Shown in pieces: positions 14,829 to 63,027 of a stretch of 64,000 nucleotides of DNA. Positions within the stretch are counted from its first letter, which is position 1; each line of letters begins with the position of its first letter. The notes beneath the pieces are model-generated. The model was given only the letters and a program-made list of their open reading frames with translations. It had not been told where the DNA came from and did no database searches. The DNA lies in assembly GCA_003551365.1 (NCBI GenBank), contig PUMM01000141.1:369-64368 (forward strand), written 5' to 3'. The translations under genes and the position numbers were made by a program. Source of the stretch: Clostridia bacterium (GTDB lineage Bacteria > Bacillota > Sulfobacillia > SLMV01).

Positions 14829-15375
14829 CGCTCGTCTCCTCCAGCTACCGCAGCTCTGACTATCATTGAAGTCCAGCGCCCGTTCAGCCGCGTCCAATCC
14901 CGCCCTCCCGGGGTGCAGCGGCCCCCATCGTCTGGGCAGCATCAATGTGGCAGACGGCAGCAGATCTCCAACCCCGGTGAACACCCCCGTGCCCCGGTGA
15001 TGACCGAAATGCTCCGTATCTCCACTGGAGGTCGCTTCTTTCAAAATTGCAAATCGCTATATTTCGTTGCAGGAGTGGGGGCATAACCCGTGGAACTGCA
15101 TAGATGAACCTTACAGGTACGAAAATGGCAGATGCCAGCGATGCCCGCGCGGTGGTCGCTGGCGCCGGATGTTATGGGGGCTTGCGGGAATTCGGGGGCG
15201 ATTGCTCACCCGGTTACTCACTGACCTTCATCTGACTCATCCGCGGCGCAGCGGCCTACGACAGTGAGGACGGAACACTTTTGGGTAAGGGGCGGCGACA
15301 GAAACATACCCGGGAAGCATGCCCGGGGCGAAAGGTGTGGTCAGCGCGCTGGCCACCTCAGAGGAGGGTGATTGG

Positions 15376-16572: not shown

Positions 16573-16595
16573 GTTGCTGTGGGAGGGATGAAGTC

Positions 16596-17381
16596 TTGCG
16601 GTACATTGTCTGTATGAAGCAGGTTCCGGAAGCCACCGAGGTGGACATAGATCAGGAAACGGGGACATTGCTGCGGGAGGGAATTCCCTCCATTATCAAC
16701 CCCTTCGACGAGTATGCCATTGAGGAGGCCCTGCAGTTCCGCGAGGAGCACGGTGGCGAGGTGACCGTGCTCTCCATGGGACCCCCGCAGGCAGAGGAGG
16801 CCCTGCGCGAGTCGGTGGCCATGGGGGCGGACGATGGAATTCTTCTTTCCGATCCGGCCTTCCGCGGGGCCGACACCCTGGCCACTGCCCGCACTCTGGC
16901 CGCTGCGGTCAAGAAGATGGGAGACTACTCGGTCATACTGTGCGGCAAGCAGGCCATAGATGGCGACACTGCGCAGGTGGGACCCGAACTGGCGGAACTG
17001 CTGGATATTCCTCACGTGGCTGATGTGCGCGATGTGCGGGAGCTCACCGATGAGAACATAACAGTGGAACGGATGATAGAGGGAGGATATGAGATCGTGT
17101 GCGCCTCTCTCCCGGCGCTGGTGACGGTGCTCAAGGACATCAATGAGCCGCGTCTGGCCAATATGCAGGGTATCATGCGGGCCAATCAGATGGACATCCC
17201 CACCTGGGGAATGGATGACCTGAATCTCTCCTCCACAGAGGTGGGGTTGGATGGATCTGCGACAGAAGTGATCCGGGTGTTCACTCCCGAGGCGGGAGAA
17301 CCCGGAGAGATGATAGAGGGCGAGCCCCGCGAGCAGGCGCGGGAGCTGGCGAACAGGCTGCGGGACGCCGGCGCAATTTAG
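16596..17381 (+). CDS. etfB: electron transfer flavoprotein beta subunit
   Basis: Track ORF 16554..17381; TTG 16596 preferred (GGGAGGGA SD 7 nt upstream). LRYIVCMKQVPEATEV..INPFDEYAIEEAL..ILCGKQAIDGDTAQVGP are typical EtfB strings. Confidence 0.85.
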   Translation: MRYIVCMKQVPEATEVDIDQETGTLLREGIPSIINPFDEYAIEEALQFREEHGGEVTVLSMGPPQAEEALRESVAMGADDGILLSDPAFRGADTLATARTLAAAVKKMGDYSVILCGKQAIDGDTAQVGPELAELLDIPHVADVRDVRELTDENITVERMIEGGYEIVCASLPALVTVLKDINEPRLANMQGIMRANQMDIPTWGMDDLNLSSTEVGLDGSATEVIRVFTPEAGEPGEMIEGEPREQARELANRLRDAGAI

Positions 17382-17391
17382 GAGGTTGCCA

Positions 17392-18582
17392 ATGCGACAG
17401 CTGCTCATAGATCATGACAGGTGCACTCGTTGCGAAATGTGCCTTTCTGCCTGCCCCTTCGGGGCTCTCAGCCTGGGGGAGGAAGGCCTGGAGGTTGGTG
17501 ATCAGTGCAATCTCTGTGGGGCCTGTGTCGATGAGTGTCCCGAGGGAGCACTGGACATATCGGGAGAACGTGAGGAGGTCGATGTTTCCGATTGGCAGGG
17601 CATCTGGGTCTTCGTTGAACACAGCGATGGTCGGATCGCTGGCGTGGTGGGTGAACTGCTCACCGAAGCCCAGAAGATGGCCGGCAAGGCCGGTTACGAG
17701 GTTTCCGCCGTCCTGGCGGGTGCGGGGGTGGCTGACCTCGTCGATGAGGTCATAGCCCGCGGTGCGGACCGGGTTTACCTGGCCGATCACGAGGATCTGG
17801 CATCCGTGCATGAGGAGACATATGCAGGTTTGCTGGCCGCCCTGGTGCGTCGCCATCGCCCCGCCGCGTTTCTGTTCGGGGCCACGGTGCGGGGGCGCTC
17901 GCTGGCGCCGCGGCTCGCGGCCCGCCTGGGTACCGGTCTGACGGCTGACTGCACCGAACTTGATCTGGAATCATCGGGACAACTGATCCAGACGCGCCCG
18001 GCCTTCGGGGGAAACATAATGGCCACCATCGTCTGCCCGAATCACCGACCCCAGATGGCCACGGTTCGTCCGAGAATACTGCGTGCTGACCCTCCGGATG
18101 CAGGTAGAGAGGGCGAGGTAGTGGATCTATCCGATGAAATGGAAGTAGTGGCCGCCCGCACCGTCCTACTGGATGCGGTGCGGGAGGATGCCGAGGGGGT
18201 GCAGATAGAGGATGCTGACATCATAGTGGCCGGAGGGCGCGGACTGGGTGGCCCGGAGGGGTTCGACATGATACGCGACCTGGCCCGGACGCTGGGTGGC
18301 GCGGTTGGCGCCTCCCGTGCGGTGGTTGATTCTGGTTGGATTCCCTACCCCCATCAGGTGGGGCAGACCGGCAAGACTGTCAGTCCCAATGTCTACATCG
18401 CCTGCGGCATATCGGGTGCGGTGCAGCACTTAGCCGGCATGCGATCATCGGACACGATCATAGCCATAAACAGAAACCCGGAAGCGCCCATATTCAAGAT
18501 CGCCACCTACGGTCTGGTGGGCGACCTGTCCAGCATAATTCCGCATCTTAAGGAAGAAATCGAGAAGGCTCGTGAGGAATAA
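17392..18582 (+). CDS. etfA: electron transfer flavoprotein alpha subunit with N-terminal 2x[4Fe-4S] ferredoxin domain
   Basis: ATG 17392 is 6 nt after GGAGG. The first ~60 aa hold CTRCEMCLSACP and CNLCGACVDECP. The remainder is EtfA (..RPAFGGNIMATI.., ..VGASRAVVDSGW..QVGQTGKTVSP.YIACGISGAVQH..G). Confidence 0.85.
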   Translation: MRQLLIDHDRCTRCEMCLSACPFGALSLGEEGLEVGDQCNLCGACVDECPEGALDISGEREEVDVSDWQGIWVFVEHSDGRIAGVVGELLTEAQKMAGKAGYEVSAVLAGAGVADLVDEVIARGADRVYLADHEDLASVHEETYAGLLAALVRRHRPAAFLFGATVRGRSLAPRLAARLGTGLTADCTELDLESSGQLIQTRPAFGGNIMATIVCPNHRPQMATVRPRILRADPPDAGREGEVVDLSDEMEVVAARTVLLDAVREDAEGVQIEDADIIVAGGRGLGGPEGFDMIRDLARTLGGAVGASRAVVDSGWIPYPHQVGQTGKTVSPNVYIACGISGAVQHLAGMRSSDTIIAINRNPEAPIFKIATYGLVGDLSSIIPHLKEEIEKAREE

Positions 18583-18596
18583 GGAGGCTGATCCAA

Positions 18597-19775
18597 TTGA
18601 CAGAAACCGTCATCGTCAGTGCAGTCCGCACGCCTTTCGGCCGTTTCGGCGGAGGGCTGGCCGGCATGCCCGCGGTGCAGCTGGGTGCCCTCACCATAGA
18701 GGAGGCGGTGCGCCGGAGCAGATTTGATCCGGACGAAGTTGACTACGTGCTGCAGGGTATGGTGCTGCAGGCCGGTGCGGGGCAGATACCCTCACGACAG
18801 GCCGCGGTTAGGGGCGGACTGCCAGTATCGGTTCCCTCCGACACAGTAAACAAGGTGTGCGCCTCCAGCCTGCGCACCGTGAATCTGGCCGATCTGATGA
18901 TTAAAACGGGCCAGGCATCGGTGACCGTGGCGGGAGGAATGGAGAGCATGAGCCGCGTTCCCTATCTCCTGCGGGATGCTCGCTGGGGATACCGGATGGG
19001 AGACCAGAAGGTGGAGGACGGCATGATAGTGGACGGCCTGTGGTGCAGCTTCGGTGACTGTCACATGGGCGTCTACGGAGGCGAGGTGGCCGAGGAATTC
19101 GGTGTGAGCCGCGAGGAGCAGGACGAGTGGGCTCTGCGCTCGCATCGTCTGGCTGATGCAGCCTGGCAGGATGGCAGGTTTGCCGATGAGGTGATGCCGG
19201 TAGAGGCGCCCGGCCCCAAAGGGTCCACGGTCACTGTGGACCGGGACGAGTCCATTCGTCCCGACACATCCATGGAGAAGCTGCAGAAGCTCCCTCCGGT
19301 GTTCAGTAGGGACGGCACGGTGACGGCAGGGAATGCACCTGGCCTGAACGACGGCGCGGGAGCCCTGGTGGTCACTTCAGCGGAGCGGGCGCGTTCTGCA
19401 GGGGTTCAACCCCTGGCCGAGGTTATCTCCGGGGGGCAGGTGTCAGAGGAAGCGCGTTATCTACATACTGTGCCGTACCGGTCGGCCAGACAGGCGCTAC
19501 AGAGAGCGGGCATGAAGTTTTCTGACGTGGATCTGTTTGAGATTAATGAGGCCTTCGCCGCCGTGCCACTGGTGAGTATGCAGCTGGGTGAGCTGGATCC
19601 GGAGACAGTGAATGTGAATGGTGGCGCCGTGGCCATGGGACATCCAATCGGCGCCAGCGGAGCGCGCATACTCATGACCCTGATCTACGAACTGCGCCGT
19701 CGGGGTGGTGGCGTGGGTGTCGCTGCCCTGTGCAGCGGAGGTGGACAGGGCGAGGCAACAGTAATAAAGGTGTGA
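18597..19775 (+). CDS. acetyl-CoA C-acetyltransferase (thiolase II)
   Basis: TTG start after AGGAGG. VIVSAVRTPFGRFGG, NKVCASSLR (active-site Cys), NVNGGAVAMGHPIGASG and CSGGGQG are thiolase signatures. Confidence 0.9.
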   Translation: MTETVIVSAVRTPFGRFGGGLAGMPAVQLGALTIEEAVRRSRFDPDEVDYVLQGMVLQAGAGQIPSRQAAVRGGLPVSVPSDTVNKVCASSLRTVNLADLMIKTGQASVTVAGGMESMSRVPYLLRDARWGYRMGDQKVEDGMIVDGLWCSFGDCHMGVYGGEVAEEFGVSREEQDEWALRSHRLADAAWQDGRFADEVMPVEAPGPKGSTVTVDRDESIRPDTSMEKLQKLPPVFSRDGTVTAGNAPGLNDGAGALVVTSAERARSAGVQPLAEVISGGQVSEEARYLHTVPYRSARQALQRAGMKFSDVDLFEINEAFAAVPLVSMQLGELDPETVNVNGGAVAMGHPIGASGARILMTLIYELRRRGGGVGVAALCSGGGQGEATVIKV

Positions 19776-19805
19776 CACGAACAGCGTCTGCGGGAGGTGC
19801 ATACG

Positions 19806-20654
19806 GTGAAGACCGTATTTGTGGCGGGAGCCGGCCGGATGGGCGCGGGAATTGCCCAGGTCGCCGCCGGTGCTGGTCATGAGGTGATTCTTTACGACCT
19901 GACGCAGGAGTTGGCCAATGGGGGACTGAAGGCCATCGATAAGTCCCTGCAGCGTGCGACTGACAGGGGACATGTGACTTCGCAAGAGGCTGACGGCATA
20001 CTGCAGCGCATCACAACCACCGCCGATCTGTCGCGGGCCGAGCCTGCCGATTTCGTGCTGGAGGCCATAATCGAGGACCTTTCGGCCAAGAAAGAGCTGT
20101 TCGGGGAGCTGGACGGGATCTGCCGCGAGGACGTGATCCTGGCAACCAACACCTCATCTCTCTCCGTGACCGATATGGCCGAGGCCACCTCCCGTCCCCA
20201 CCGGTTCATTGGGATCCACTTCATGAATCCGGTTCCGGTCATGCAACTGGTGGAGCTGGTCCGCGGCCTCAAGACCTGTGACGAGGCATTTGCAGCGGGG
20301 GAGGAGTTGGTGCGAGGTATGGGGAAGAAGCCGGTTGCGGTGCGGGACCTTCCGGGTTTCGTCGTCAATCGGTTGCTGATTCCCATGATCAATGAAGCAG
20401 TGGCCTGTCTCGACCAACGACTGGCTTCGGCAGAGGACATCGATCGAGCCATGTCTCTGGGGGCCAACCATCCCCTGGGACCCCTGGCCCTGGGAGATAT
20501 GATCGGACTTGATGTGGTGTTGGCGATAATGCGCACTCTGCACGAGGGTTTCGGGGAGGATAGATACCGGCCGCACCCACTTCTGGTCAAGATGGTGGAA
20601 TCCGGCCAGCTGGGCCGCAAAACGGGAGTGGGCTTCTACGATTACTGGGGGTGA
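19806..20654 (+). CDS. hbd: 3-hydroxybutyryl-CoA dehydrogenase
   Basis: Track ORF 19797..20654; GTG 19806 sits 8 nt after GGGAGG. VFVAGAGRMGAGIAQV Rossmann fold, NTSSLS, HFMNPVPVM and GFVVNRLL are motifs of the HAD family. Confidence 0.9.
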   Translation: MKTVFVAGAGRMGAGIAQVAAGAGHEVILYDLTQELANGGLKAIDKSLQRATDRGHVTSQEADGILQRITTTADLSRAEPADFVLEAIIEDLSAKKELFGELDGICREDVILATNTSSLSVTDMAEATSRPHRFIGIHFMNPVPVMQLVELVRGLKTCDEAFAAGEELVRGMGKKPVAVRDLPGFVVNRLLIPMINEAVACLDQRLASAEDIDRAMSLGANHPLGPLALGDMIGLDVVLAIMRTLHEGFGEDRYRPHPLLVKMVESGQLGRKTGVGFYDYWG

Positions 20655-39034: not shown

Positions 39035-39919
39035 ATGCAGCTGCGGGTGGCCCTGTGCCAGTACGAAACGGAGCTGTCCAGCAAAGCGGAAAATGTAGAC
39101 AGGAGTGTTGCGTGGCTGGAGCGGGCGGCGGAGGAAGGTGTAGACCTGGCCGTTTTGCCCGAGCTCATTATCTCCGGCTACGCGGCGGGGGAAGAGCACC
39201 TGGAGATGGCCGAGCCGGTGCCTGGTCCGGTCACCGGGATGTGGGGAGATGTCGCCCGGAGAAACAGTATGTATGTCGTGGGTGGATTGGGCCGGAGAGA
39301 TGAGGCACTGGATGGGGTGATATACAACTCGGCGGTGCTCATAGGCCCCACCGGGGACGTAATCGGGGTGTACGACAAGGTGGTCCCGCCTCTGTATCTG
39401 CACACCCTGTACAGCCGGGGTGAGCAGATGATGATAGCGGAGGCAGAACTGTTTCGCTGCGGAAACTCCCTGCCGGTGTTTCCCACGGAGGTGGTCCGGT
39501 TCGGACTGCAGGTCTGTCAGGATGCGGTCTACGGTGAATTTGTCCGGGTGCAGGCCAGAAGAGGTGCGCAGGTGGTGGTGCAGATCTTCAATAATCCCGC
39601 CCCGCCGGGTCCAGCCGATGACATCCTGCCGGATGTTAGCCGGGTGCATGCCTGGGAAAACGGAGTCTACATAATTGCGGCCAACAAGTGCGGGACGGAA
39701 ACCGGGGAGTTTGCTGGTCAGCAGACAGAGGTGACCTTTCAGGGAGAGTCACATGTGGCCGACCCATTCGGTGAAATCATCGGCCGTGCGGCTGTCCGGT
39801 CTTCCGAACTTCTGGTGGTCGATATTGATACCCAGCGAGTGAAAGAGGCACAATGGGTGCATAAGTTCCACCGCGACTACCGCGGCGACCTGCTGTGGGA
39901 TCTCGTCGACGACGTATAA
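39035..39919 (+). CDS. carbon-nitrogen hydrolase (nitrilase superfamily amidohydrolase)
   Basis: Track ORF 38789..39919; ATG 39035 sits 8 nt after AAGGAG. MQLRVALCQYE.., ..LAVLPELIISGY.. (catalytic Glu context) and ..RFGLQVCQDAVY.. (catalytic Cys context CxD). Confidence 0.8.
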   Translation: MQLRVALCQYETELSSKAENVDRSVAWLERAAEEGVDLAVLPELIISGYAAGEEHLEMAEPVPGPVTGMWGDVARRNSMYVVGGLGRRDEALDGVIYNSAVLIGPTGDVIGVYDKVVPPLYLHTLYSRGEQMMIAEAELFRCGNSLPVFPTEVVRFGLQVCQDAVYGEFVRVQARRGAQVVVQIFNNPAPPGPADDILPDVSRVHAWENGVYIIAANKCGTETGEFAGQQTEVTFQGESHVADPFGEIIGRAAVRSSELLVVDIDTQRVKEAQWVHKFHRDYRGDLLWDLVDDV

Positions 39920-40038
39920 CGGGAGGGACGGGGCAATCTGCCATCCGGCGAATGACGGGAGGCGGAGCACAACCCTGCATTTTCTGTGCAGCACATCCCT
40001 CCCGGCGTCATTGTATCATCAGAGAGGAGAGATGCAGC

Positions 40039-40698
40039 ATGCGATCCTTTATGGTTGACAGAACTGGGGAGGGACCGTACCGGTCAGCCTTCGAGCAAAG
40101 CCTGGAGGTCTTTGGACGTGCCGATCCCGCACAGATGGCGCACCGCGCCGGGGCCGACCATGATCCCGGAAGCTCGGTCATCAGACTGTCGAGCCTTGGA
40201 TACCCGCTGGAGGTTTCCCATCCGTTTGGTGATGTGACCTTCAGGGGAACGGGAGAGCGCCCCATATGGCAGTGGCAGCTGGTGACCTTGAATTACCTGG
40301 GCCGGGCGGACGGGACTCCCCTGTCCGGCAGGCTCACTGCGTTCCGTGATTTGGAGGGAGGGTGGGTATTTCAGGAGCCCTTTGTCCGCCACACATTATC
40401 CCGCCTGGCTGAAAGAGTGCTGGAGGAACACATACCGGCCCTGCGGTGGGCCCTTCAGGAGTTGGGTGGCCAGCTCATCGATGTGGGTGACGTGGGTGCA
40501 GATCTGCCCCTTTTCCCCCGCTTCCCAGTGACGGTAGTCTGCTGGTCCGGCGAAGACGAGTTTCCTTCCTCTGCCAATGTGTTGTTTGACAGTACGGCCA
40601 ACCACTATCTGCACACAGAGGACGCCTCCGCTGCCGGCAGCATCATCATCAGCTTCCTGAATCATCTCATGGACGAAAGGGAAGGGGGGCGGTTCTGA
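40039..40698 (+). CDS. DUF3786-like protein
   Basis: Track ORF 39895..40698; ATG 40039 follows GAGAGGAGAG. The pattern ..LVTLNYLGRADGTPLSGRLTAFRDLEGGWVFQEPF.. and ..LPLFPRFPVTVVCWSGEDEFPSSANVLFDSTANHYLHTEDA.. fits my memory of DUF3786. Assignment is moderate. Confidence 0.5.
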   Translation: MRSFMVDRTGEGPYRSAFEQSLEVFGRADPAQMAHRAGADHDPGSSVIRLSSLGYPLEVSHPFGDVTFRGTGERPIWQWQLVTLNYLGRADGTPLSGRLTAFRDLEGGWVFQEPFVRHTLSRLAERVLEEHIPALRWALQELGGQLIDVGDVGADLPLFPRFPVTVVCWSGEDEFPSSANVLFDSTANHYLHTEDASAAGSIIISFLNHLMDEREGGRF

Positions 40699-40732: not shown

Positions 40733-43700
40733 TCATGAGGCCCCTGCATCTTCGGCGTCCAGTACTTCGAGGAACATCCGCACCAGGTGGGGATCGAACT
40801 GGGAGCCAGCGTTTTCCACAAGCTCCCGCCTGGCTTCATCTTCACTCATGGCGGAGCGATAGGGTCGATCGTTGGTCATGGCATCATACGCGTCGACTAT
40901 GGACAGTATGCGGCATTCTATGGGTATGTCTTCCCCGGAAATTTGCAGCGGATATCCCGTTCCATCCCATCGCTCGTGGTGCTTGAGTATCAGATCGGCA
41001 ACTTTCGCCAGGTCGGGATCGGACAGGGCCACCCGGTAGCCCTTTTCGCAGTGCTGCCGCATCTCCTCCCACTCCTCGTCATTCAGGGGGCCCGGCTTGA
41101 ACAGGATGCGGTCGGGAACACCCACCTTTCCCAGATCATGTACCTGAGCCAGCAGACCGAGGTCGGCGAGCTGCCGGGAATTCAGGTCTGCCCGCTTTCC
41201 CAGCTCCTGGCACAATCTCTGCATGCGTTCGGCGTGTCCCTGCGTTATGTGATCCCTCTCGGCCAGGGCGGCCATCAGGGCGTCGAGTACGCGGCGGCGT
41301 CCGGTTCCCTGCTGCAGCAGCTTGTTGCGGTACATGTCCTGGTCGGCAGCGCGGCGCAGGTCGTGCAGGGAGCGGTCGCGATGCACTGCCGTGGCGAACC
41401 CAAGAGATATACTGATGGGAGTCTTTCGGTCGCGCCGATTATACTCGTGTATCGCGGTCCCAATTTGTCCGGCGATCTCCTCTGCCTCGTCCGCCGTGGT
41501 GCAGGGGAGAATCACACCAAACTCATCTCCGCCGAGGCGCGCGAGTTCGGCCGAGGCGGGAAGATTGTCGTGCAGTATACTGGCGCAGATCTGCAGCAGT
41601 TCATCCCCTGCCGCATGCCCCATGGTGTCATTGACGATTTTCAGGCCGTCCACGTCGGCCGAAAGGAAGGTCAGAGGATAGCTGTCCTTCCCGTCAATCT
41701 GTAGCAACCGGCGTTCAAAGTGGTTGCGGTTGTGCAGGCCGGTTAGCTCGTCGTGAAATGTGAGGTAGTTTATCTGCTGCCGTGCCTCGCTCCGTTCGAG
41801 GGCGCTGAATATGATCTCTCCCGCTATGCGAATTGCCCTGATGTCTTCTTTCTTCCAGGGATCTTGCGCCTGGCCCCCATCCAGACGAATGGTTCCAGCC
41901 AGGCTGGATTCCAGTGCAATGGGTACGCAGAGGATTGCTCCGAGCAGCCCCTCGGAAAAATGCTCGGGCCGCACGCAGGCGTCTTGCGGCAGGTCTTCCG
42001 GATCGGAGACCTGGATCTCCCCGTCACTCTGTACTCTTCTGGTGCAGAAGTGCGGGGTGCTGTCTCCTTTTGGCCGCAGATCATCCGGTAACGGGTCGAC
42101 CTTCGGGGCGCACCACCGGTAGCACCTTTGATAGGCAGCCGACTCCGGGCTCATTCGATTGGCGTAGACCCGGTCCGCACCGGCGAATTCCCCGATGATC
42201 TGCAGGCTCTTCCGCACCGTGTTCTCGATGTCTCTAACCGGCGCGTGCAGGAATAGTCCAGATAGCTCTGCGGCCAGCTCCTGCCGGGCCAGCTCTTCGC
42301 CCAGTGCCTCTTCTGCTTCTTTCCTGTCGGTGATGTCGCGGGCCGCTGCGTAGATGGTGGTACCATGCGGTTCGGAATTCCATTCTATGTAACGGTAGGA
42401 GCCGTCTGCGGCGAGATAGCGGTTGACGAATCCACGACCTCCCTCCTGTCTGTCCAGTTGGGCCATCCTCTTCTGCGTCGCGCTCAGATCTTCTGGGTGG
42501 ATGAAGTCGAGGAACTTCTGGCCTTCCAGGTCCTTTTCGCTGTATCCAAGTATGTGCGCCCAGGCCCGGTTCACCCGCAGAAAGCGTCCTCTTGTATCGG
42601 CTATGCACAGGGGTTCGGGGACCAGATTGAAGTAGGTTTCCAGCTCTTCCGTCTTCTTCTGCAGAGCTCGTCTGATGCGGTGCTGTTCGGTGACATCCGA
42701 GAAAACGATGGTGGCCCCACGCACCTCGCCGTCACTTCCGCAAATCGGAGCGGCGGAGTCGGCAATTTGCCTTTTCTCCCCGCAGCGTGAGGTCAGCACC
42801 GTGTCGTTGGCCAGGCGGATAGTCTGTTCCTGCTGCAGAACTCTGTGCAGGAGGGAGGAGATTGGATCCCCATTGCGATTATCCCAGATGTTGAAGACCT
42901 GTGGCAGGGGACGCCCCATGGCCTCTCCTGAGGGCCAGCCTGTGAGGCGCTCTGCCGCCGGATTCAGCAGGTCCACTCTTCCCTCCGCGTCAGTGGCGAT
43001 CACTCCATCCCCCAGGGAGTGGAGTATGGTGGACAGGTATTCCTTGCTTTCGTGCAGCGCGGCGTCGGCCTGTCGATAGCGGATCATGCGGCCCAGCTGC
43101 AGTGCGATTGCTGCCAGCAACTCTTCTTCCTCGGGCAAAAAAGACGTCTCGCTTCTGCGCAGGCAGACCTCAATAGTCCCCAGGTGTTCTTTTCCCGCCG
43201 CTATTTCCTGACTCAGGCGCGGTGCATCCTCGGACCAGCCGGGGGTGCGGGCCTCGTGTTCTCCCAGGCGAATGCGCGCCTCGGTGGCTGTGGGATTCTG
43301 AAAGGCGGCCGGCAACCTGTTGATGATGCTCATTGCGGTTTGCTTGCGCGTCAGGTGGGTCTCGTCCGGCAGTCGGGATAGTTGGTACAGCAGATCGAGC
43401 TCCTTCTCGCGTTCGCGTAGCTGGTGGCGCATGTGGGATAGCTCATCGTCTGTCCCCTGTCCTCTTTCTGGAGCCGCAAGAGTCACCAGCACCCGCCCTG
43501 TCCCGGGCAGTTTTCGGCAGTGCAGGCTGGTCCGGATCTCGCTTCTGTCGCCAGTACGCAGGGCTGCATCGAAGCGACACTTCCCTTTGTCGTCCAGAGC
43601 TCGATGGCTTTCAATCCAGCCCCCCGCCCTGTCGAGTTGATCGATCTTTTCGCCCCGCAGGTCCTGGTCGCATTTGAGCAACTGATGGGCTGGTTCATTG

Positions 43701-44077
43701 GCGGCTTCGATAACTCCATCTTTGCAGCAGATAATTGCGGGAACATGTGCGCAATGTACCAGCTCGCGCTCGGCAGCGGCCGATGTGGCTTCCTTTCCTT
43801 CCGCCGACAGATATGCCGCGCGGATGAGGCCGGCTGACAGAGCCACGTGCAGGGCTACAGTGATGGGAGCAGAAGATGCGACGAGAGGTGACAGCAGCAC
43901 CCCCAGACAGCCAAGGGCTGCTGTCGTAGCTGCATACACCCGGGCGCCGTGGCGGTAGAACATCGCCGCAGCCAGCAGCGTGAAGGCCGCCAGAGCCGCC
44001 GGGGACGTCCAGGGAGTGAGGACTAGGAGTATGAGTGCTGTTGCGCCGAGAAAGTGAATGTAGATACCCTTTGCCAC
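40733..44077 (-). CDS. membrane-anchored PAS/GAF multi-sensor protein with GGDEF diguanylate cyclase and HD-GYP phosphodiesterase domains
   Basis: 1114 aa. N-terminal hydrophobic helices, several PAS/GAF-like segments, ..HDELTGLHNR..RLGGDEFGVIL.. (GGDEF intact, no RxxD upstream), then ..HDLGKVGVP.. and ..HHERWDGTGYP.. (HD-GYP intact). Confidence 0.85.
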   Translation of the reverse strand: MAKGIYIHFLGATALILLVLTPWTSPAALAAFTLLAAAMFYRHGARVYAATTAALGCLGVLLSPLVASSAPITVALHVALSAGLIRAAYLSAEGKEATSAAAERELVHCAHVPAIICCKDGVIEAANEPAHQLLKCDQDLRGEKIDQLDRAGGWIESHRALDDKGKCRFDAALRTGDRSEIRTSLHCRKLPGTGRVLVTLAAPERGQGTDDELSHMRHQLREREKELDLLYQLSRLPDETHLTRKQTAMSIINRLPAAFQNPTATEARIRLGEHEARTPGWSEDAPRLSQEIAAGKEHLGTIEVCLRRSETSFLPEEEELLAAIALQLGRMIRYRQADAALHESKEYLSTILHSLGDGVIATDAEGRVDLLNPAAERLTGWPSGEAMGRPLPQVFNIWDNRNGDPISSLLHRVLQQEQTIRLANDTVLTSRCGEKRQIADSAAPICGSDGEVRGATIVFSDVTEQHRIRRALQKKTEELETYFNLVPEPLCIADTRGRFLRVNRAWAHILGYSEKDLEGQKFLDFIHPEDLSATQKRMAQLDRQEGGRGFVNRYLAADGSYRYIEWNSEPHGTTIYAAARDITDRKEAEEALGEELARQELAAELSGLFLHAPVRDIENTVRKSLQIIGEFAGADRVYANRMSPESAAYQRCYRWCAPKVDPLPDDLRPKGDSTPHFCTRRVQSDGEIQVSDPEDLPQDACVRPEHFSEGLLGAILCVPIALESSLAGTIRLDGGQAQDPWKKEDIRAIRIAGEIIFSALERSEARQQINYLTFHDELTGLHNRNHFERRLLQIDGKDSYPLTFLSADVDGLKIVNDTMGHAAGDELLQICASILHDNLPASAELARLGGDEFGVILPCTTADEAEEIAGQIGTAIHEYNRRDRKTPISISLGFATAVHRDRSLHDLRRAADQDMYRNKLLQQGTGRRRVLDALMAALAERDHITQGHAERMQRLCQELGKRADLNSRQLADLGLLAQVHDLGKVGVPDRILFKPGPLNDEEWEEMRQHCEKGYRVALSDPDLAKVADLILKHHERWDGTGYPLQISGEDIPIECRILSIVDAYDAMTNDRPYRSAMSEDEARRELVENAGSQFDPHLVRMFLEVLDAEDAGAS

Positions 44078-44431
44078 AGCTCGAGCCTCCCCATTCTGAC
44101 GTAACCCGTCAATTTCCGTATCATAACTCTTCTATTTCACAGACGCAATCCCTTTACGCTTTCCGTTTATGGGGTGCTGCCGTGAGTAACGGGCAGACTG
44201 GCTGTTTCCCACCGGTGGTCATGCAGGAAATATGTGCTTCGGGCTCGCGCCGACCTGCCTGCGCCCACTCGTGCGAGGCCGCAGGCGTAGCCCGGGCGTA
44301 TTTGCTGCGGCAGATGATATACTAAAAAATAGAGAAGAATCCGGACAGATGGGGATTCCTCCCTGTGACCGATGTGCGGAAACGGGAAGTGCTTTGGATT
44401 GCGCTTTTGCGCATTTCACCGATGAGTGACT

Positions 44432-45577
44432 ATGGAGAGGAGTGATGAGGGTTTGGCTGATGTGGCGCGGGGACATGGGGTTGATCTGCAGGACCTGTCC
44501 GCGGGGACGGCCGAAGAGTATGCTGACAGGGTCGCGCATCTGGCAGCTACGGTTGATGAGATAATGGCTGGGCAGGAAGATGTGGAGGACCTCATCGGTG
44601 GGAACCCACTGAAGATGATGCGGGAGAATCACCGGCATCATGCCCGCTTCATGGCTACAGTGTTGACCCTGCGGGATGGGCACCTGCTGGCTTGTACCAT
44701 GCCTTGGGTGTTCCGGACCTACATGAACCGCGGGTTTGCTCCCGAGTATTTCCCCCGGGTTCTTTCCGCTTTCTGTCAGGCGGTGGATATCCACCTTTCT
44801 CCGGCAGCAGCCCGTTCAGCAAGATCCGTTTACCGTTGGATGAGCGAAAACTACGAGAGATTCCTGCGGGAATCGCGGTGCGCCCCGGACGACGATCTGC
44901 CGGAGTCTGCCGTGTGGGCGGATCTGCTGGCGGCATTTCTGCGGGCGCTGCTGCGGGGTGATCACCAGGAATGCCTGCGGCTGGCCGAGGATTCTGTGCC
45001 ATCTGCAGCTGATGTGCCGGATTTTTACCTGCAGGTCATCGGGCCCGCTCTGCTGGAGATAGGAGAGCGATGGGAGCAGAATCGTATTTCGGTGACGGAT
45101 GAGCATCTGGCTTCGTCCATCGTGTCCCGTGTGATGACCTCCTTTCATCTGCGCTTTATGCGCGGCGAATACAGTTGGGGCCGAGCGGTAGTGACGGCGG
45201 TGGCCGACGAGTATCACGAAATAGGAGCCCGCATGGTGGCCGACCTGCTGGAGTTTGACGGGTGGGATGTCACCTTTTTGGGGGCAGATACGCCGAGTGA
45301 GGAGCTCAAACGTATGCTCCGGCGCCACCCCCCTTTTTTCCTCGGTCTTTCGGTGACCATGCCATTCAACGTCGATCGGGTCAGGCGGCTAATTGGAGAG
45401 ATCAGGGGGCATGAAGAACTGGACGATATGTACATAGCCGTCGGCGGACAGGTGTTTTCGCGGCATCCCCATCTGGTGCAGGTGGTAGATGCTGATGCTG
45501 TCGCGACGGACGGCAGTGAGGCGGTGCGTATAGCCCGAGCCTGGTGGGAGGGAGCTCAATGTGATGAAGCGCAGTGA
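44432..45577 (+). CDS. cobalamin-binding protein with CarH-type light-sensor signature (unknown N-domain + B12-binding_2 cap + B12-binding Rossmann domain)
   Basis: Track ORF 44426..45577 (numbering from 44426). IGERW216EQNRISVTDE226H227LAS = Wx9EH. VTAVADEYH264EIGARMV = [D/E]xHxxG. GLSVT and VGG blocks follow. No DNA-binding domain recognised. Confidence 0.75.
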   Translation: MERSDEGLADVARGHGVDLQDLSAGTAEEYADRVAHLAATVDEIMAGQEDVEDLIGGNPLKMMRENHRHHARFMATVLTLRDGHLLACTMPWVFRTYMNRGFAPEYFPRVLSAFCQAVDIHLSPAAARSARSVYRWMSENYERFLRESRCAPDDDLPESAVWADLLAAFLRALLRGDHQECLRLAEDSVPSAADVPDFYLQVIGPALLEIGERWEQNRISVTDEHLASSIVSRVMTSFHLRFMRGEYSWGRAVVTAVADEYHEIGARMVADLLEFDGWDVTFLGADTPSEELKRMLRRHPPFFLGLSVTMPFNVDRVRRLIGEIRGHEELDDMYIAVGGQVFSRHPHLVQVVDADAVATDGSEAVRIARAWWEGAQCDEAQ

Positions 45578-46511
45578 AGATCTGCTGGGACGGTGCCCCG
45601 AGCCGGTTGCCCGCTATCTGCACAAACTCACGGACACCTCCCTCGCCGTCTTGGATGGTGATGGGGTGGTTGTGCAGTGCAATGAGGCCTTTGCCCGGCT
45701 GTTCGGGGCAGACCCGTCTACAGTCGTCGGAGACCGGGCGGAGCGCTACCTTTCCGGTGCAGATGGAATCGGTCTGTCGGATGGACGGCAGGCCATCCGG
45801 CGACGTTTCAACCTGCAGTGCGGCCCGGCACGGGGAACAGCATTGGACTGTCACGTTTTCCACTGGCGAGATGGCTGCGTACTCTTCGGGCGCAGTACCT
45901 TCGAATCTGATGAGGAGGTATTTCAGCAGCTGACCAGGCTGAACAATGAGCTATCGAACCAATCGCGCGAGTTGGCCAAAAAGAACGCCGAGCTGCTGCG
46001 GGCCAATGAGCAGATCGAACAGCTGATGCGGACTGATCATCTGACCGGCCTCGCCAATCGCCGCCACTTCCTCGAGCATCTGGAGAAAGCTGTTGCAGAC
46101 GCTCATCGGCACGGCAGGTCGCTTTCTCTGGCCGCTCTGGATCTCGATCACTTCAAGGAAGTTAACGATGAGCACGGCCACGCCGCCGGTGATGATCTGT
46201 TGGCGGCCCTCGGTGAGGTGCTGCAGGAGCAGACCCGCAAGGAAGACCTCCCCGCACGCATCGGCGGGGAGGAGTTCATGGTCTTACTGGTCGGAGCGGA
46301 CTGCAACCGCGCCGCGGTTTTTGCCGATCGTCTGCGGCGCGAAGTGGCCTCAATCGAACTCTCCTGTGCCGACATTTGTGTGACGGCCAGCCTGGGCGTG
46401 GCCGAACTGGGCTGCGGGGAATCTCCCGAAGACCTCATGCTGCGGGCGGACCGGGCCCTGTATCGCTCCAAAGAGGCAGGCCGCAATCGCATGACCGTCG
46501 CCGGTACATGA
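45564..46511 (+). CDS. PAS-like / coiled-coil / GGDEF diguanylate cyclase
   Basis: Track ORF 45561..46511; ATG 45564 sits 9 nt after GGGAGGGAG and overlaps the 3' end of the B12 gene by 14 nt. ..TDHLTGLANRRHF..RKEDLPARIGGEEFMVLL.. (GGEEF plus RxxD I-site). Confidence 0.85.
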   Translation: MKRSEDLLGRCPEPVARYLHKLTDTSLAVLDGDGVVVQCNEAFARLFGADPSTVVGDRAERYLSGADGIGLSDGRQAIRRRFNLQCGPARGTALDCHVFHWRDGCVLFGRSTFESDEEVFQQLTRLNNELSNQSRELAKKNAELLRANEQIEQLMRTDHLTGLANRRHFLEHLEKAVADAHRHGRSLSLAALDLDHFKEVNDEHGHAAGDDLLAALGEVLQEQTRKEDLPARIGGEEFMVLLVGADCNRAAVFADRLRREVASIELSCADICVTASLGVAELGCGESPEDLMLRADRALYRSKEAGRNRMTVAGT

Positions 46512-46610: not shown

Positions 46611-47051
46611 CTACTTGATTGCTGCCGCCAGCATGCGACCCGCGTTTCTCAGTGCTTCAGCTTCTTCCTCATCTGGCCGGTCCTGAACCATAACTGGCCC
46701 GGTTATCATATTGAAGTGGAACGAGTCGCATATGCGAATCAGGCTGTCTCGTGCCTTTCCGCCACCTCCGTGTGTGACGAATGTTACGCAGGGCTTGCCC
46801 CGCACGTCATCGCGTGTTGCATAGAAAGTCCTGTCAAAGAAATCTTTCACCATGCCAGACATGTAGTCGAAGTAGTCGGGCGTGCCCACGACAATTCCAT
46901 CGCAGGACAGAAGATCTTCGCTGCCGGCCTCGCGTGCGAGTTTCACGGTTACCTGAACATCTTTATCTTCCCTCACTCCTTCGGCCACCAGGTGCGCTGC
47001 GTCTTCCGTGTTACCGGAAAGAGTGTGGTAGATGATGAGAATCTTGGACAT
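46611..47051 (-). CDS. flavodoxin-fold protein
   Basis: Track ORF 46611..47060; ATG 47051 sits 8 nt after GAGGGGG. MSKILIIYHTLSGNTEDAAHLVAEG..VVGTPDYFDYMSG.. is a flavodoxin-like FMN-binding N-terminus. Confidence 0.75.
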   Translation of the reverse strand: MSKILIIYHTLSGNTEDAAHLVAEGVREDKDVQVTVKLAREAGSEDLLSCDGIVVGTPDYFDYMSGMVKDFFDRTFYATRDDVRGKPCVTFVTHGGGGKARDSLIRICDSFHFNMITGPVMVQDRPDEEEAEALRNAGRMLAAAIK

Positions 47052-47448
47052 TTCTCTCACCCCCTCGTTTCTATTTCGTCGTGCCGCCCGTCAGTACCTT
47101 CTCGCGTCAGGGGGATGTTAGGGGTGGGAGGGAAGAGGACATATGGTGGATGAGGGAGAAGAAATTACCTGTAGGATCCGGTGTGAGCACGTCCCTGCTC
47201 CTTTTTGCTGAGGCTGACATTCTGGCATTGGCGCTCCCGGCTGCACGGCGGGTGCGTGGTCAGGTAGGCCGGTATGTCCGGGGGGATTAAATCTGCTGAC
47301 GGGGCTAATGTGGCGCCTGGGGGCAGTGCAGATAACCTGCAAACCGCCCCGACTGCAGACAGCGTGCCGCCGGGTACCGGCAGTTCGAATTCGAGCATGA
47401 TTGCCCACCGGTTGTGGGTTTGATTGGCTACCGGAAGGAGATACGGGA

Positions 47449-49899
47449 GTGAGCTACGACGGTGATCGCGAGCTGGAAGATCTGGCCGACTGCATTCTCC
47501 GGGTGGCCGAACAGGCAGATGGAGAAAGAGATTTCCGACGTCGGATCATATCTATCCTGCGCGCACATGACCGCGGCTTTGCAGGGATGCATTCCGGGGA
47601 CAGCTGTGCGCAGCGGGAGAGGCAGAACTGTATACGGAAGCTGCACGAAGTTGCCGTACAGTTGGAGGACATCAATTGCGAACAGCAGGTGTACGAGCTG
47701 GCAGTGGCCGCGGTAGACGACCTCCTGGGTCTGGCAGCCGCAGTCAGCGAGGTGGCGGAGGGGGATACCTCGGTGCTGCGTGCCGAATCGCGAGCGTGGT
47801 CGGAGGAAGCGGCTCGCCCCAATTCTGTATACCGCCGCCTGAGGAATGAGAGCTTCCGTACCGGCCGCACCCAGTACCTCGCCGATATGCACAAGCATCC
47901 GGAGATGGTCACGGACCACCCGGCGCATCGTTCGGTGGTGAGTGTCCCGATCGGGGAGTTCGGCGTGCTTCAGTGTGCCTCCGGAGAAGAGGATGCTCCT
48001 GGCAGCGAAGTGGTTGAGGTCTTGGAGATACTGGCTCTTCATCTGGCTGCGGCAGTGCGGAGGATCCGCATCTGGCGACGGGGGAAACGAGAAAGGTCCG
48101 AGGCGGAGAGGCGGGTCTCGGAGTATGCCATGATTTTTTCCGGTATGCAGGATGGGATGTTTCTCGTGGAATCACGCAGTGATGCTGCGTTTTCTCTTCT
48201 GCGGGCCAATAGTGCCCTGGAGCGAATGACGGATGGAGGCCGCACCCGCGCCCGGGCGGGGTCGCCAGTTGACATGTTCGGCCCGGATATGCGTGGCGCG
48301 TTCACCCGTCATCTGCGCACATGTGCGGTTCAACAGGAGCCGGTCTCCTTTTTCGTCGAACTGCACACTGGTGATGGAGTGCGCTTCCTGTCGGTGCAGC
48401 TTTCACCCCTCCCGGCGGTGTCCAGTGATGTGAAGCGGCTCCTCGGGTCGGTTTGTGACCGGACCGCCGAAAGATGGACCGAGCGCGCTCTGGAGGAGAG
48501 TGAGGAGAAGTACCGGACCCTGGTTCACAACATCAATGATGCAATACTGATCGTGCAGGGTGGCCGGTGTGTCTTCGCCAACCCGGCGGCGGGCACGTTG
48601 ATGGGGTGCAGGTCCAAAGACCTGGTGGGTATGCAATGGCGTTGTATTGTGCACCCGGCCGAACGTGCCCGGGTGGATCGGATGGCTCGCGCGAGAAAGC
48701 GTGGAGATCCTGTTCCGGACATTTATGAAAGTGCCGTGGTTGATCATCGTGGCCGGGACGTTGACGTGGAATTTAATGTGAGTAGGACTACCTATCTGGG
48801 GCAGAGTGCCGTGTTCATCAGTATGCGGGATATCGGTAGACGGAAGAAGGTGGAGCGCAGGCTGCGTTACCTCAGCTTTCACGACCAGCTCACAGACCTT
48901 TATAACCGTGCCTACTTTGAGAACGAGCTCCGTCGTCTGGATGTTTGGCGCCAGCTCCCCCTTTCCGTCATCCTGGCTGACGTCAATGGTCTGAAGTTGA
49001 TCAATGACGTATTCGGCCACCAGGAGGGAGACCGGCTGCTGCGGGAGGTCGCCGATATACTGCGCAGCTCGGCGCGCGAGGAGGATGTGGTGGCCAGAAC
49101 GGGAGGAGATGAATTTGCCATCCTGATTCCACAGACCTCGGCCGGAAATGCGGAGGAAATCATGCGTCGGATTCACCGGCGCTGTGCGGAGTGGGATGAT
49201 GAATCCTTCTCTGTATCAGTGTCAATGGGCGTTGCTACCAAATCGGAGGAGGGCGAGGACGTCTGGGAAGTCTTCGGCCGGGCGGAGGAGCGGATGTATC
49301 AGGATAAGATGCTGCGGCGGGACAGTGCCAGAAATGCCATCATCAAATCACTGCGGGGTGCCCTGGAGGAAAAAACACAGGAGACCAGCGAGCACATGAG
49401 GCGACTGGAGGAACTGGGTGTGGCAGTGGGGCAGCGGCTGGGGCTGGCGGAGAGCAGTCTGAGCAATTTGGCCCTGCTGGCCCAATTGCATGACATCGGT
49501 AAGGTGGCCGTTCCGGCGTCGGTACTCGAGAAGGAAGGCCCTCTAGATCCCGCCGAGCGGGCTGAGATCCAGAGGCACACGGAGATCGGTTATCGTATCG
49601 CCAACAACAGCGTCGATCTGGCCTCCATCTCTGACTCCATCCTTTCTCACCACGAGTGGTTTGACGGCAGCGGGTATCCACGAGGATTGGCGGGGGATGC
49701 CATCCCATTGCTGGCGCGGATCCTCGCAGTGGTGGATGCCTTTGATGCCATGACCAGTGAGCGTCCTTACTGTGCGGCGATGAGTCGTGAGGAGGCGCTG
49801 GCTGAGGTGCGGGATGGGGCGGGAACTCAGTTTGATCCGGAGGTGGCGGGGGTCTTTCTCGCCATGATGGAGCACTCTGACAGGGATGCCTCTGGCTGA
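47449..49899 (+). CDS. GAF/PAS multi-sensor protein with GGDEF and HD-GYP domains
   Basis: Track ORF 47401..49899; GTG 47449 follows GGAAGGAG. ..HDQLTDLYNR..REEDVVARTGGDEFAILIP.. (GGDEF plus RxxD), ..HDIGKVAVP.. and ..HHEWFDGSGYPRG.. (HD-GYP). Confidence 0.85.
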   Translation: MSYDGDRELEDLADCILRVAEQADGERDFRRRIISILRAHDRGFAGMHSGDSCAQRERQNCIRKLHEVAVQLEDINCEQQVYELAVAAVDDLLGLAAAVSEVAEGDTSVLRAESRAWSEEAARPNSVYRRLRNESFRTGRTQYLADMHKHPEMVTDHPAHRSVVSVPIGEFGVLQCASGEEDAPGSEVVEVLEILALHLAAAVRRIRIWRRGKRERSEAERRVSEYAMIFSGMQDGMFLVESRSDAAFSLLRANSALERMTDGGRTRARAGSPVDMFGPDMRGAFTRHLRTCAVQQEPVSFFVELHTGDGVRFLSVQLSPLPAVSSDVKRLLGSVCDRTAERWTERALEESEEKYRTLVHNINDAILIVQGGRCVFANPAAGTLMGCRSKDLVGMQWRCIVHPAERARVDRMARARKRGDPVPDIYESAVVDHRGRDVDVEFNVSRTTYLGQSAVFISMRDIGRRKKVERRLRYLSFHDQLTDLYNRAYFENELRRLDVWRQLPLSVILADVNGLKLINDVFGHQEGDRLLREVADILRSSAREEDVVARTGGDEFAILIPQTSAGNAEEIMRRIHRRCAEWDDESFSVSVSMGVATKSEEGEDVWEVFGRAEERMYQDKMLRRDSARNAIIKSLRGALEEKTQETSEHMRRLEELGVAVGQRLGLAESSLSNLALLAQLHDIGKVAVPASVLEKEGPLDPAERAEIQRHTEIGYRIANNSVDLASISDSILSHHEWFDGSGYPRGLAGDAIPLLARILAVVDAFDAMTSERPYCAAMSREEALAEVRDGAGTQFDPEVAGVFLAMMEHSDRDASG

Positions 49900-61632: not shown

Positions 61633-63027
61633 ATGATGCCGTCCCTGTCAACCAAAAGGCTCGGGTGCTGGTTGCGGTCGATACCCGACACAGATCAAAC
61701 TCGCACATATCGCGCACTCCTGGTCATTGGAGCAACCGCTTATCTGGTGTTCGGCCTGGTCTACCGGATCTCGTTCGAAAAACCCGATCCTCTTCTCATG
61801 ACCGAACGACTGGTCATGGTTGCCCTGTGCGTAGTGCTTCTGGTCCTTTCGTATGTCAGCCGGAAGGTGCATCGACTACTCCCGGCTCTTCTGATCGGGT
61901 TGACCGCACTTGCCACGTTCCGTACACTGCACGCCGCACATCTGCATCAGTACCGACTCGATGTGGCGATGAGCATTGTGGTGGTAGTTGTCCTGGTCAA
62001 CCTCATATTTGATCCGGGTCCGCCCGTTCTGGCCTTCAACGTAATGGTAATCGCCGGGTCCGGAATATCGGCGATCCTGGCCGACGAATTTCTGCTGAGT
62101 AGATGGGCCTACCTCCTGTCGCTCGCCTTCGTCTCCGCCGCTTCGTATCACATTGCCTGCCAGCGGTATCGCACTGCGCGTCAGCTCGCCGATAGTCGCG
62201 AAACCTATCGTCAGCTGTTCACCAATATGACTGCAGGATTTGCCCACTGTCGCCCCGTCGCCGCCGGATCCGGTGAGGTAGTCGACTACCGGATTATCGA
62301 ATGCAATGCGGCATTTGCGGCGCTTCTGGGCGCATCACCGGCGGAGATCTCCGGAGAAAACTGGTTCGATCTCTACCCCGATTCGCATGGAGTTGCCGCC
62401 TGTATGCGGTCAGCTCTGAGGGGTGAGCAGACAGACCGCCTTGACTGGTTTCTGGATCCCCCGGGGAGATGGCTGGGAGTCACGGCCTACTCGCCGCGCG
62501 AGGGAGAGGTGGCGGTGCTGCTAACCGATGTGACTGAGAGGCGCGAAAGAGAGGACGAGGCGGTGAACCGCAGCTTCCGCGATCCCATCACCGATCTGTA
62601 CAATCGTCGTTTCTTTGATGAGGAACTGCAGCGCCTGGATACAGCGCGGCAGCTGCCCATCAGCATCGTCCTGCTGGACATCAATGGGCTGAAGGCCATC
62701 AATGATGCTCATGGCCATCGGTGGGGGGATGAAGTCATCCGCTCCATCGGAAGGGTGCTGGATGATGCGACGCGTGAAGAGGATATTGTGGCCCGCATAG
62801 GCGGCGACGAATTTGCTCTTCTGCTTCCTCTAACTGATGCGGAGGAAGCATCCAGCATCTGTGTGCGCATCCGTGAGGGGGTACGGTCGCTCGACCGGGA
62901 GGGTGTGCTGCCGTTTTCCGTGGGTGCCGCAGTGGGTTGTGCCACCAAGTATCGGGAAGGTGAAGAAATAGCAGATCTTTTCGATATAGCCGACCGAGCT
63001 ATGTACCGGGACAAAGAGTCCACCTGA
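61633..63027 (+). CDS. membrane-anchored PAS-GGDEF diguanylate cyclase
   Basis: ATG follows AAAGGAG. About 5-6 N-terminal TM helices and a PAS-like segment, then ..RDPITDLYNRRFF..REEDIVARIGGDEFALLLP.. (GGDEF plus RxxD). Confidence 0.85.
   Translation: MMPSLSTKRLGCWLRSIPDTDQTRTYRALLVIGATAYLVFGLVYRISFEKPDPLLMTERLVMVALCVVLLVLSYVSRKVHRLLPALLIGLTALATFRTLHAAHLHQYRLDVAMSIVVVVVLVNLIFDPGPPVLAFNVMVIAGSGISAILADEFLLSRWAYLLSLAFVSAASYHIACQRYRTARQLADSRETYRQLFTNMTAGFAHCRPVAAGSGEVVDYRIIECNAAFAALLGASPAEISGENWFDLYPDSHGVAACMRSALRGEQTDRLDWFLDPPGRWLGVTAYSPREGEVAVLLTDVTERREREDEAVNRSFRDPITDLYNRRFFDEELQRLDTARQLPISIVLLDINGLKAINDAHGHRWGDEVIRSIGRVLDDATREEDIVARIGGDEFALLLPLTDAEEASSICVRIREGVRSLDREGVLPFSVGAAVGCATKYREGEEIADLFDIADRAMYRDKEST

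Follow-up and report, generated by a model that had tools for sequence, protein, structure and literature searches.

We analysed a 64,000-nucleotide stretch of DNA from a Clostridia bacterium (assembly GCA_003551365.1, contig PUMM01000141.1, positions 369 to 64,368; the window) and found two overlapping open reading frames (ORFs), ORF A and ORF B, that very probably constitute a real sensor-effector module. According to sequence comparison and structure prediction, ORF A is a stand-alone sensor of the photocobilin (photoglobin-B12) class with its globin placed first, and we assign it to this class because a CarH-type B12 module and a photoglobin-like globin appear to be combined in one protein. 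ORF B is a predicted diguanylate cyclase in which a PAS-like head and a coiled coil, hereafter the signature coil, precede a GGDEF domain. The case for a functional pair is strong because the two form a conserved, specific, overlapping and co-diversifying gene pair, and because a natural fusion of sensor and coil (P0221) was found. An earlier reading of this DNA from its letters alone (the sequence-only reading) had proposed that the two proteins act as a pair through protein contact, and comparative genomics and the fusion P0221 strongly back that proposal. The features of the pair, all on the plus strand, are the following.

44432..45577, plus strand: ORF A, the sensor, from ATG 44432 to TGA 45575-45577, 381 residues (ORF list and sequence).
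44432..44905, plus strand: predicted N-terminal globin-fold domain, residues ~20-150, photoglobin-related (structure model, Foldseek and hhalign).
44627..44641, plus strand: N66-H67-R-H-H70 motif in the long third helix (hhalign and column mapping of PDB alignments).
44927..45136, plus strand: B12-binding_2 four-helix cap, residues 166-235 (Pfam PF02607, 1.3e-14).
45071..45106, plus strand: W214-x9-E224-H225 (Wx9EH), the adenosyl-pocket motif of light-sensing cobalamin domains (sequence).
45182..45529, plus strand: Rossmann-type B12-binding domain, residues 251-366 (Pfam PF02310, 1.7e-18).
45209..45226, plus strand: E260-Y-H262-E-I-G265, an E-x-H-x-x-G motif within VADEYHEIG (sequence).
45546..45554, plus strand: Shine-Dalgarno-like GGGAGGGAG, within the end of ORF A and 9 nucleotides (nt) 5' of the ORF B ATG.
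45564..45577, plus strand: overlap of 14 nt in which ORF A ends and ORF B begins.
45564..46511, plus strand: ORF B, the effector, from ATG 45564, 315 residues (sequence, Pfam, NCBIfam and partner alignments).
45591..45908, plus strand: PAS-like head, residues ~10-115 (partial PAS_4 and PAS matches at ~2e-5, the PAS match covering residues 24-68).
45915..46019, plus strand: signature coiled coil, residues 118-152, LNNEL.N..R135EL.K140N141..L144..AN..I..L.
46032..46490, plus strand: GGDEF catalytic domain, residues 157-309 (Pfam PF00990, 2.4e-42; TIGR00254, 1.1e-45).
46236..46277, plus strand: RxxD inhibitory site R225-K-E-D228 (46236-46247), followed by LPARI and by G234-G-E-E-F238 (46263-46277).

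The sequence bore out the ORF coordinates, the Wx9EH motif at 45071-45106, the ExHxxG motif, the 14-nt overlap and the separate Shine-Dalgarno sequence of ORF B that the sequence-only reading had described. The residues it numbered W216, E226, H227 and H264 were the right ones, with the numbers offset by two since they had been counted from GTG 44426; from ATG 44432 they become W214, E224, H225 and H262. The 14-nt overlap suggests that translation of ORF B is coupled to that of ORF A.

Sequence and model evidence supports assignment of the ORF A cobalamin module to the light-sensor (CarH) type rather than the methyltransferase type. Searches of PDB sequences placed SasPcob (8J2W/X), AbPcob (8J2Y) and the CtMerR domain (8JBS) closest among solved proteins, all at ~2e-20, with CarH next at 6e-11 and corrinoid methyl-carrier proteins and methionine synthase at 1e-6 or worse. 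The nearest solved relatives are thus B12 photoreceptors, as the sequence-only reading had anticipated when it set the domain apart from those of methyltransferases. In the same search, W214 and E224-H225 aligned with W61 and E71-H72 of SasPcob (PMC10979010). W214, E224, H225, E260, H262 and G265 were invariant in 40/40 aligned homologues (32-44 % identity). Moreover, at least 299 loci with an ORF A relative came to light when one genome per species was scanned, and in the best 80, which were analysed, Wx9EH and ExHxxG were both kept at 79. The EH pair is invariant in orthologues and the cap does not group with methyltransferases, two of the points on which the sequence-only reading had made its assignment depend. 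Cobalamin binding is a safe inference from these invariant ligand motifs, with His262 as the predicted lower axial cobalt ligand. The signature that Yu et al. derived with SignatureFinder for light-sensing domains consists of GxxW, EH, GxxH and GxxxP (PMC11796333), and ORF A has three of the four elements (G211xxW214, E224H225 and G284xxxP288).

An AlphaFold2 model of full-length ORF A was obtained with a mean predicted local distance difference test score (pLDDT) of 93.1 and a predicted template modelling score (pTM) of 0.89. This pTM value implies a fixed arrangement of globin and B12 domains in the predicted structure. Foldseek superposed the model on the cobalamin domains of 8JBS, 8J2W and CarH with root-mean-square deviations of 2-3 Å and ranked them as the sequence search had; only the B12 half was aligned, since ORF A and the solved photocobilins differ by a permutation of their domains. 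We found no helix-turn-helix or MerR match in ORF A with Pfam or NCBIfam, in agreement with the earlier statement that the DNA-binding domain of CarH is missing, and the NCBIfam CarH model scored 58 bits against a cut-off of 400, covering the B12 part alone. About 69 full-length homologues were found, the best in species-representative genomes sharing 45 % identity. The profile search that delimits the ORF A subfamily returned 644 clusters at 50 % identity; among its best 150 matches, above a weak tail that runs toward canonical photoglobins, nearly all were ~370 residues long and had the same layout.

Automatic annotation points elsewhere. ORF A has weak NCBIfam matches to MtgC (45 bits) and MtbC (30 bits), and Joint Genome Institute (JGI) automatic names call homologues 'methanogenic corrinoid protein MtbC1', as would suit a corrinoid methyl-carrier of a methyltransferase system that lies beside a cyclase gene by coincidence. 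These scores are far under the family cut-offs of 350-370 bits and lower than that of the CarH model, the invariant Wx9EH runs contrary to such an identity, none of the neighbourhoods inspected contained a methyltransferase gene, and the conserved and specific downstream partner argues against chance adjacency. On these four grounds we rejected the methyl-carrier identity, which we regard as hardly credible. The MtbC1 name is attached to P0005, P0010, P0012, P0029 and others, and a few homologues are named 'MerR family light-induced transcriptional regulator'; neither name appears to be right for a globin-B12 architecture.

The N-terminal part of ORF A, described in the sequence-only reading as a His-rich domain that it could not place, can now be assigned by sequence profiles and modelling as a photoglobin-like globin. 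Comparison of this domain with PDB sequences, both as a single sequence and as a profile hidden Markov model (HMM), gave no meaningful match, and its placement comes from structure prediction with Foldseek and from profile-profile comparison through intermediate relatives. Modelled alone, the domain reached a pLDDT of 91.4, and all 50 of its best Foldseek matches in the PDB were globins. The highest template modelling (TM) scores, 0.60-0.63, were to allophycocyanin subunits, and the matches included the globin-coupled sensor domains of BpeGReg, DosC and AfGcHK. Among weaker homologues of ORF A, P0072-P0093 have N-terminal domains whose profile matched the globin domains that bind biliverdin in 8J2Y (5.8e-5) and 8J2W/X (6e-4), with phycocyanins next, which marks these homologues as canonical photoglobins. 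When the globin profile of the window family was compared with this canonical photoglobin profile in hhalign, the two aligned over 107 columns with a probability of 94.9 % and an E value of 4.6e-8, a sequence link to the photoglobins that is made at the profile-profile level only.

The same alignments point to a changed ligand pocket. The long third helix of the domain carries the motif N66-H67-R-H-H70, in which H70 is invariant and N66 and H67 are at least 90 % conserved in the ORF A subfamily. N66 occupies the column of the bilin-binding Asp of photoglobins (D270 in SasPcob, His in AbPcob), and W92 aligns with W296 of SasPcob. The C-x-Q-D bilin motif of photoglobins (Rockwell et al. 2023, PMC10151467) reads M63-R-E65-N66 in ORF A and M63-x-[D/E]65-N66 across its subfamily, which has N-H-x-x-H in place of the bilin-binding Cys and Asp. 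Judged by the homologue alignment and the predicted structure, the predicted F helix (residues 83-99) carries no conserved proximal His; within the globin, conserved His occurs at 67 and 70, in the equivalent of the E helix, and at 141. A classical heme globin is unlikely because the predicted F helix has no conserved His.

ORF B matched TIGR00254 with 155 bits against a cut-off of 37, and Pfam, NCBIfam and the sequence upheld the earlier description of a PAS-like/coiled-coil/GGDEF protein with an intact GGEEF and an RxxD I-site. Among 39 GGDEF partners of ORF A relatives, 38 have GGEEF and 38 have RxxD five residues before GGxEF. Conservation is uneven upstream of the catalytic domain. The PAS-like head is weakly conserved across partners (N40, 97 %) and the coil is sharply conserved (R135, 100 %; K140, N141 and L144, each >90 %). 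We propose that the coil of ORF B serves as its signal-transmitting and docking element.

The pairing of sensor and partner recurs across genomes. In the first nine homologue neighbourhoods, the next gene almost always overlapped the sensor stop codon and varied in type; the nine partners aligned with ORF B in the PAS-like head and the coil, after which their outputs diverged. A usable downstream ORF was present at 72 of the 80 loci analysed, and an HMM of the head detected it in the downstream gene at 70 of these 72. The outputs joined to the head were GGDEF in 39, a Cys/His tail in 23 and a histidine kinase in three, with five proteins head-only or truncated. The sensor stop codon was overlapped by 58 of the 70 partner genes, most often by 4, 8, 11 or 14 nt, and nine more began within 20 nt. 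Specificity of the coil was assessed on all ORFs of at least 100 residues from all loci and the window (1333 ORFs in 737 kb, many other PAS, kinase and GGDEF proteins included). The coil HMM gave 82 matches, and 82/82 adjoined or were fused with a sensor. Further, for 62 of 66 sensors the other sensor most similar in sequence had the same output class, against a chance expectation of 48 %; sensor and partner therefore co-diversify.

In P0221, a metagenomic protein of 501 residues, globin, B12 domain and linker are naturally fused to the signature coil and the Cys/His tail. This protein keeps the coil and has no PAS-like part of the head, which suggests that the element essential for reception is the coil rather than the PAS-like domain. 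The coil was also found in partners of canonical, globin-first photocobilins that have the bilin Asp, namely a GGDEF-EAL protein, a HisKA kinase and a head-only protein, and it may be a general feature of the effectors served by photoglobin-B12 sensors. At L091 the head-only partner lies 5' of the sensor and overlaps its start by 4 nt; gene order is therefore reversible. The Cys/His tail, the second commonest partner output, comprises ~55 residues (PICSHCKKIRDDxGYWxxxExxxxxHSxAxFSHGxCxxC). Pfam, NCBIfam and PDB sequences contained nothing that matched it, its motif was not found in the literature, and it looks like a zinc-binding module. The partners concerned are at the following positions.

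L091:2740-3504, L092:4625-6370 and L093:4532-5671: coil-bearing partners of canonical photocobilins.
L001:6109-6735, L007:5103-5753, L009:5119-5751, 23 of the loci L011-L090, and the C terminus of P0221: Cys/His-tail partners.

Exceptions without head or coil were also seen. In Halanaerobaculum tunisiense (L002:6110-6487) the sensor is followed by a glyoxalase/VOC protein and then a hybrid-cluster protein; at L060:4912-5784 the protein is of the EcsC family, and at L062:5189-5572 it has 127 residues and no family match. KaiC adjoins the pair at L007:5877-7632, with KaiB, and at L062:1280-2734. Kai genes stand near 2 of ~90 loci, and a general link to the KaiBC clock was rejected.

At the locus itself, the start of ORF A is ambiguous among GTG 44426, ATG 44432 and TTG 44453. 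The strongest Shine-Dalgarno-like candidate for ORF A, GGAGAGGAG at 44434-44442, lies 10 nt 5' of TTG 44453 and favours that start; the database gene call of 374 residues is consistent with TTG 44453. The first ~20 residues show no conservation and low model confidence. The pair is a self-contained two-gene unit, its upstream neighbour being divergent and its downstream neighbour convergent, and the promoter is presumably in the intergenic region 5' of ORF A. No promoter or terminator could be established for the pair, the sole sigma-70-like match (44096-44124) being no better than chance. The surrounding features are these.

40733-44077, minus strand: gene for a PAS-GAF-GGDEF-HD-GYP protein, the divergent 5' neighbour.
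44078..44431, plus strand: intergenic region of 354 nt between the divergent gene and the ORF A/B pair.
46611-47060, minus strand: flavodoxin-like gene, the convergent 3' neighbour.

The window (GC content, 59 %) is rich in genes for cyclic di-GMP (c-di-GMP) proteins. Large PAS/GAF-GGDEF-HD-GYP proteins flank the pair at 40733-44077 (minus strand) and 47401-49899 (plus strand), and a PAS-GGDEF protein is encoded 15 kb 3' of it at 61633-63027 (plus strand); the signature coil is absent from all three. Just past the divergent gene, 39895-40698 (plus strand) encodes a DUF3786 protein (5e-43), a family that often occurs near corrinoid-dependent systems in anaerobes. Clustered at 15319-20654 (plus strand) are genes for an acyl-CoA dehydrogenase of the acryloyl/glutaryl-CoA type, a thiolase and an EtfA that begins with a ferredoxin domain, in keeping with a host that lives anaerobically by fermentation or syntrophy.

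The following mechanism would account for these features. ORF A would bind adenosylcobalamin (AdoCbl) in the base-off/His-on form through His262, with the adenosyl group seated in the W214/E224-H225 pocket and the photoglobin-like globin packed against the cobalamin domain. Because the last part of ORF A contains the ribosome-binding site and start codon of ORF B, the two proteins would be synthesised together, and they would associate through the head and signature coil of ORF B, which would receive the signal. By analogy with CarH and the photocobilins, near-ultraviolet to green light would cleave the Co-C bond and thereby change the conformation or oligomeric state of the sensor. The register or pairing of the coiled coil in the partner would then shift, altering the productive pairing of two GGDEF domains and with it c-di-GMP synthesis, and the RxxD site would add product feedback inhibition. 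We infer both that ORF A contacts ORF B directly and which sign the response has; light activation is favoured solely by analogy with AbDPcob, a photocobilin-cyclase fusion. Light is the most likely candidate signal of ORF A, and we consider the full light-driven route from B12 sensor to cyclase somewhat more probable than its negation.

Several observations weigh against this mechanism. The Gly of the GxxH signature element is Asp259 in ORF A and Asn in most relatives (otherwise Asp, Glu or Gly). The bilin Cys and Asp are replaced by M63 and N66, and the two-chromophore behaviour of SasPcob can therefore not be assumed for ORF A; AbPcob likewise has no bilin Asp, with His at that position, and is still classed as a photocobilin. 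Sediments, brines, digesters and hot springs, where light may be scarce, are the sources of the hosts, almost all of which are strict anaerobes (Syntrophomonadaceae, Halanaerobiaceae, Desulfobacterota, Nitrospirota, Thermotogae, Synergistota and Acetothermia). The window's own genes indicate anaerobe-type metabolism, and clock genes near 2 of ~90 loci amount to no general day/night signature. Biliverdin is not expected in strict anaerobes, because canonical heme oxygenase requires O2. In the leading alternative, architecture and coupling are the same and the signal, in anaerobic habitats without light, is cobalamin availability, upper-ligand type or cobalt redox state, or else oxygen exposure sensed by way of cob(II)alamin, with the cyclase tuned accordingly. 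The concentration of the family in anaerobes, the anaerobe-type neighbours in the window (Bcd/Etf with a ferredoxin-fused EtfA, flavodoxin and DUF3786) and the loss of the bilin motif from the subfamily all speak for it, as does the finding that AdoCbl binding alone shifts the cyclase activity of AbDPcob relative to the apo protein in vitro (PMC10979010). Set against it are the strict invariance of Wx9EH, whose sole documented role is in light-sensing domains, the fact that all characterised relatives are photoreceptors, and the many source samples from surface sediments, mats and brines able to receive light. We regard it as possible but not probable.

The globin could also supply the input. 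It might be the primary sensor of a gas or redox signal, like the globin of globin-coupled diguanylate cyclases, binding heme, another tetrapyrrole or a metal through H67, H70 and H141, with the B12 domain structural or secondary. The Foldseek matches to BpeGReg, DosC and AfGcHK, all globin-coupled sensor domains, would agree with this, as would N-H-x-x-H in place of the bilin Asp and the cause that anaerobes have to sense O2, NO or CO. We nonetheless think it improbable, given that the predicted F helix (83-99), the site of a proximal heme ligand, has no conserved His, that profile homology runs toward non-heme photoglobins and phycobiliproteins, and that the invariant cobalamin-ligand motifs place the B12 site under selection. 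A related idea, which we consider unlikely though less so, is that the photoglobin pocket has been repurposed for another ligand, joining a non-light input to B12 chemistry, and that the signature coil is a general docking code. N-H-x-x-H could then bind heme, a metal or a tetrapyrrole synthesised anaerobically, and all photoglobin-B12 sensors may select cyclase, kinase or Cys/His-tail effectors by the coil LNNEL.N..REL.KKN..L.

Systems in which photoglobin-B12 sensors control signalling enzymes, diguanylate cyclases among them, are known, and ORF A and ORF B are assigned to this kind. Schneider et al. (2021) described the photoglobin-B12 class bioinformatically and listed GGDEF among its neighbours (PMC8717448). 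Zhang et al. (2024) characterised photocobilins, finding that green light raises the cyclase activity of AbDPcob more than 10-fold and that stand-alone photocobilin domains activate the isolated cyclase in trans in a concentration-dependent manner (PMC10979010). The belief in the sequence-only reading, which was not aware of any characterised example of such a pairing, is out of date in view of these two papers. In the searchable literature we found no description of a natural, translationally coupled, cognate two-gene version, of a head and signature coil common to the effectors and defining them, or of the replacement of the bilin motif by N-H-x-x-H and the concentration of the subfamily in anaerobes; the supplementary files of the photoglobin and photocobilin papers hold nothing on the ORF A subfamily.

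B12 photoreceptors are a young field in which one enzyme-controlling example has been characterised, a fusion. The present locus and its at least 299 species-level relatives provide a genetically defined cognate sensor-effector pair, whose receiver element, the head with the signature coil, can be recognised and is found joined to three different outputs. Signal transfer from a stand-alone B12 sensor to an enzyme thereby becomes directly testable, and the pair offers components for controlling c-di-GMP optogenetically with green light. That the bilin site has been lost and that the subfamily is restricted to anaerobes raises the question of whether such 'photoreceptors' always sense light.

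Among characterised systems, AbDPcob from an Acidimicrobiaceae bacterium (PDB 8J2Y; PMC10979010) shares with ORF A/B a Wx9EH/ExH cobalamin domain, a globin and a GGDEF output. It is among the best PDB sequence matches of ORF A (5.6e-20; ~30 % identity in the B12 part), and its globin also has no bilin Asp, with His where ORF A has Asn. AbDPcob is a single polypeptide in the order cyclase-B12-globin, whereas the window has two overlapping genes, for a globin-B12 protein and then a PAS-like/coil/GGDEF protein, and the dedicated head and signature coil of the window partner are not mentioned in the AbDPcob papers. SasPcob from Saccharothrix syringae (PDB 8J2W/8J2X), the best PDB sequence match of ORF A (2.3e-20), is likewise a stand-alone B12 and globin protein proposed to act by protein-protein contact. 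Its globin is C-terminal and binds biliverdin via Asp270, while that of ORF A is N-terminal, has Asn66 and no Cys, and adds H-x-x-H; STAS/SpoIIE neighbours have been suggested as partners of SasPcob, whereas the ORF A partner is defined by conserved gene overlap. Photoglobins in general (PMC8717448, PMC10151467) resemble ORF A in having a non-heme globin before or after a B12-binding_2 domain and a B12-binding domain, and signal-transduction neighbours that include GGDEF; the ORF A subfamily differs in forming a tight separate cluster, in M-x-[D/E]-N for C-x-Q-D and in its occurrence mostly in anaerobes.

More distant systems share single aspects of the pair. CarH/LitR proteins, such as Thermus thermophilus CarH (PDB 5C8D), have the same cobalamin module and motifs and the oligomeric change upon Co-C cleavage that is predicted here, but CarH is a transcriptional regulator with a MerR DNA-binding domain, whereas ORF A lacks any DNA-binding domain and has an enzyme as its partner. 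The AerR-CrtJ system of Rhodobacter capsulatus (PMC5362033, PMC6199135), likened here by its description in the literature, also comprises a stand-alone cobalamin photoreceptor that binds a separate partner; AerR has no globin and its partner is a transcription factor, in contrast to the enzyme partner of ORF A. Finally, in DosC from E. coli and BpeGReg from Bordetella, a globin-fold sensor controls a GGDEF domain through a helical linker, as proposed for ORF A/B. Each of these is a heme-binding gas sensor made of one polypeptide and has no cobalamin domain, whereas the window globin has no conserved proximal His.

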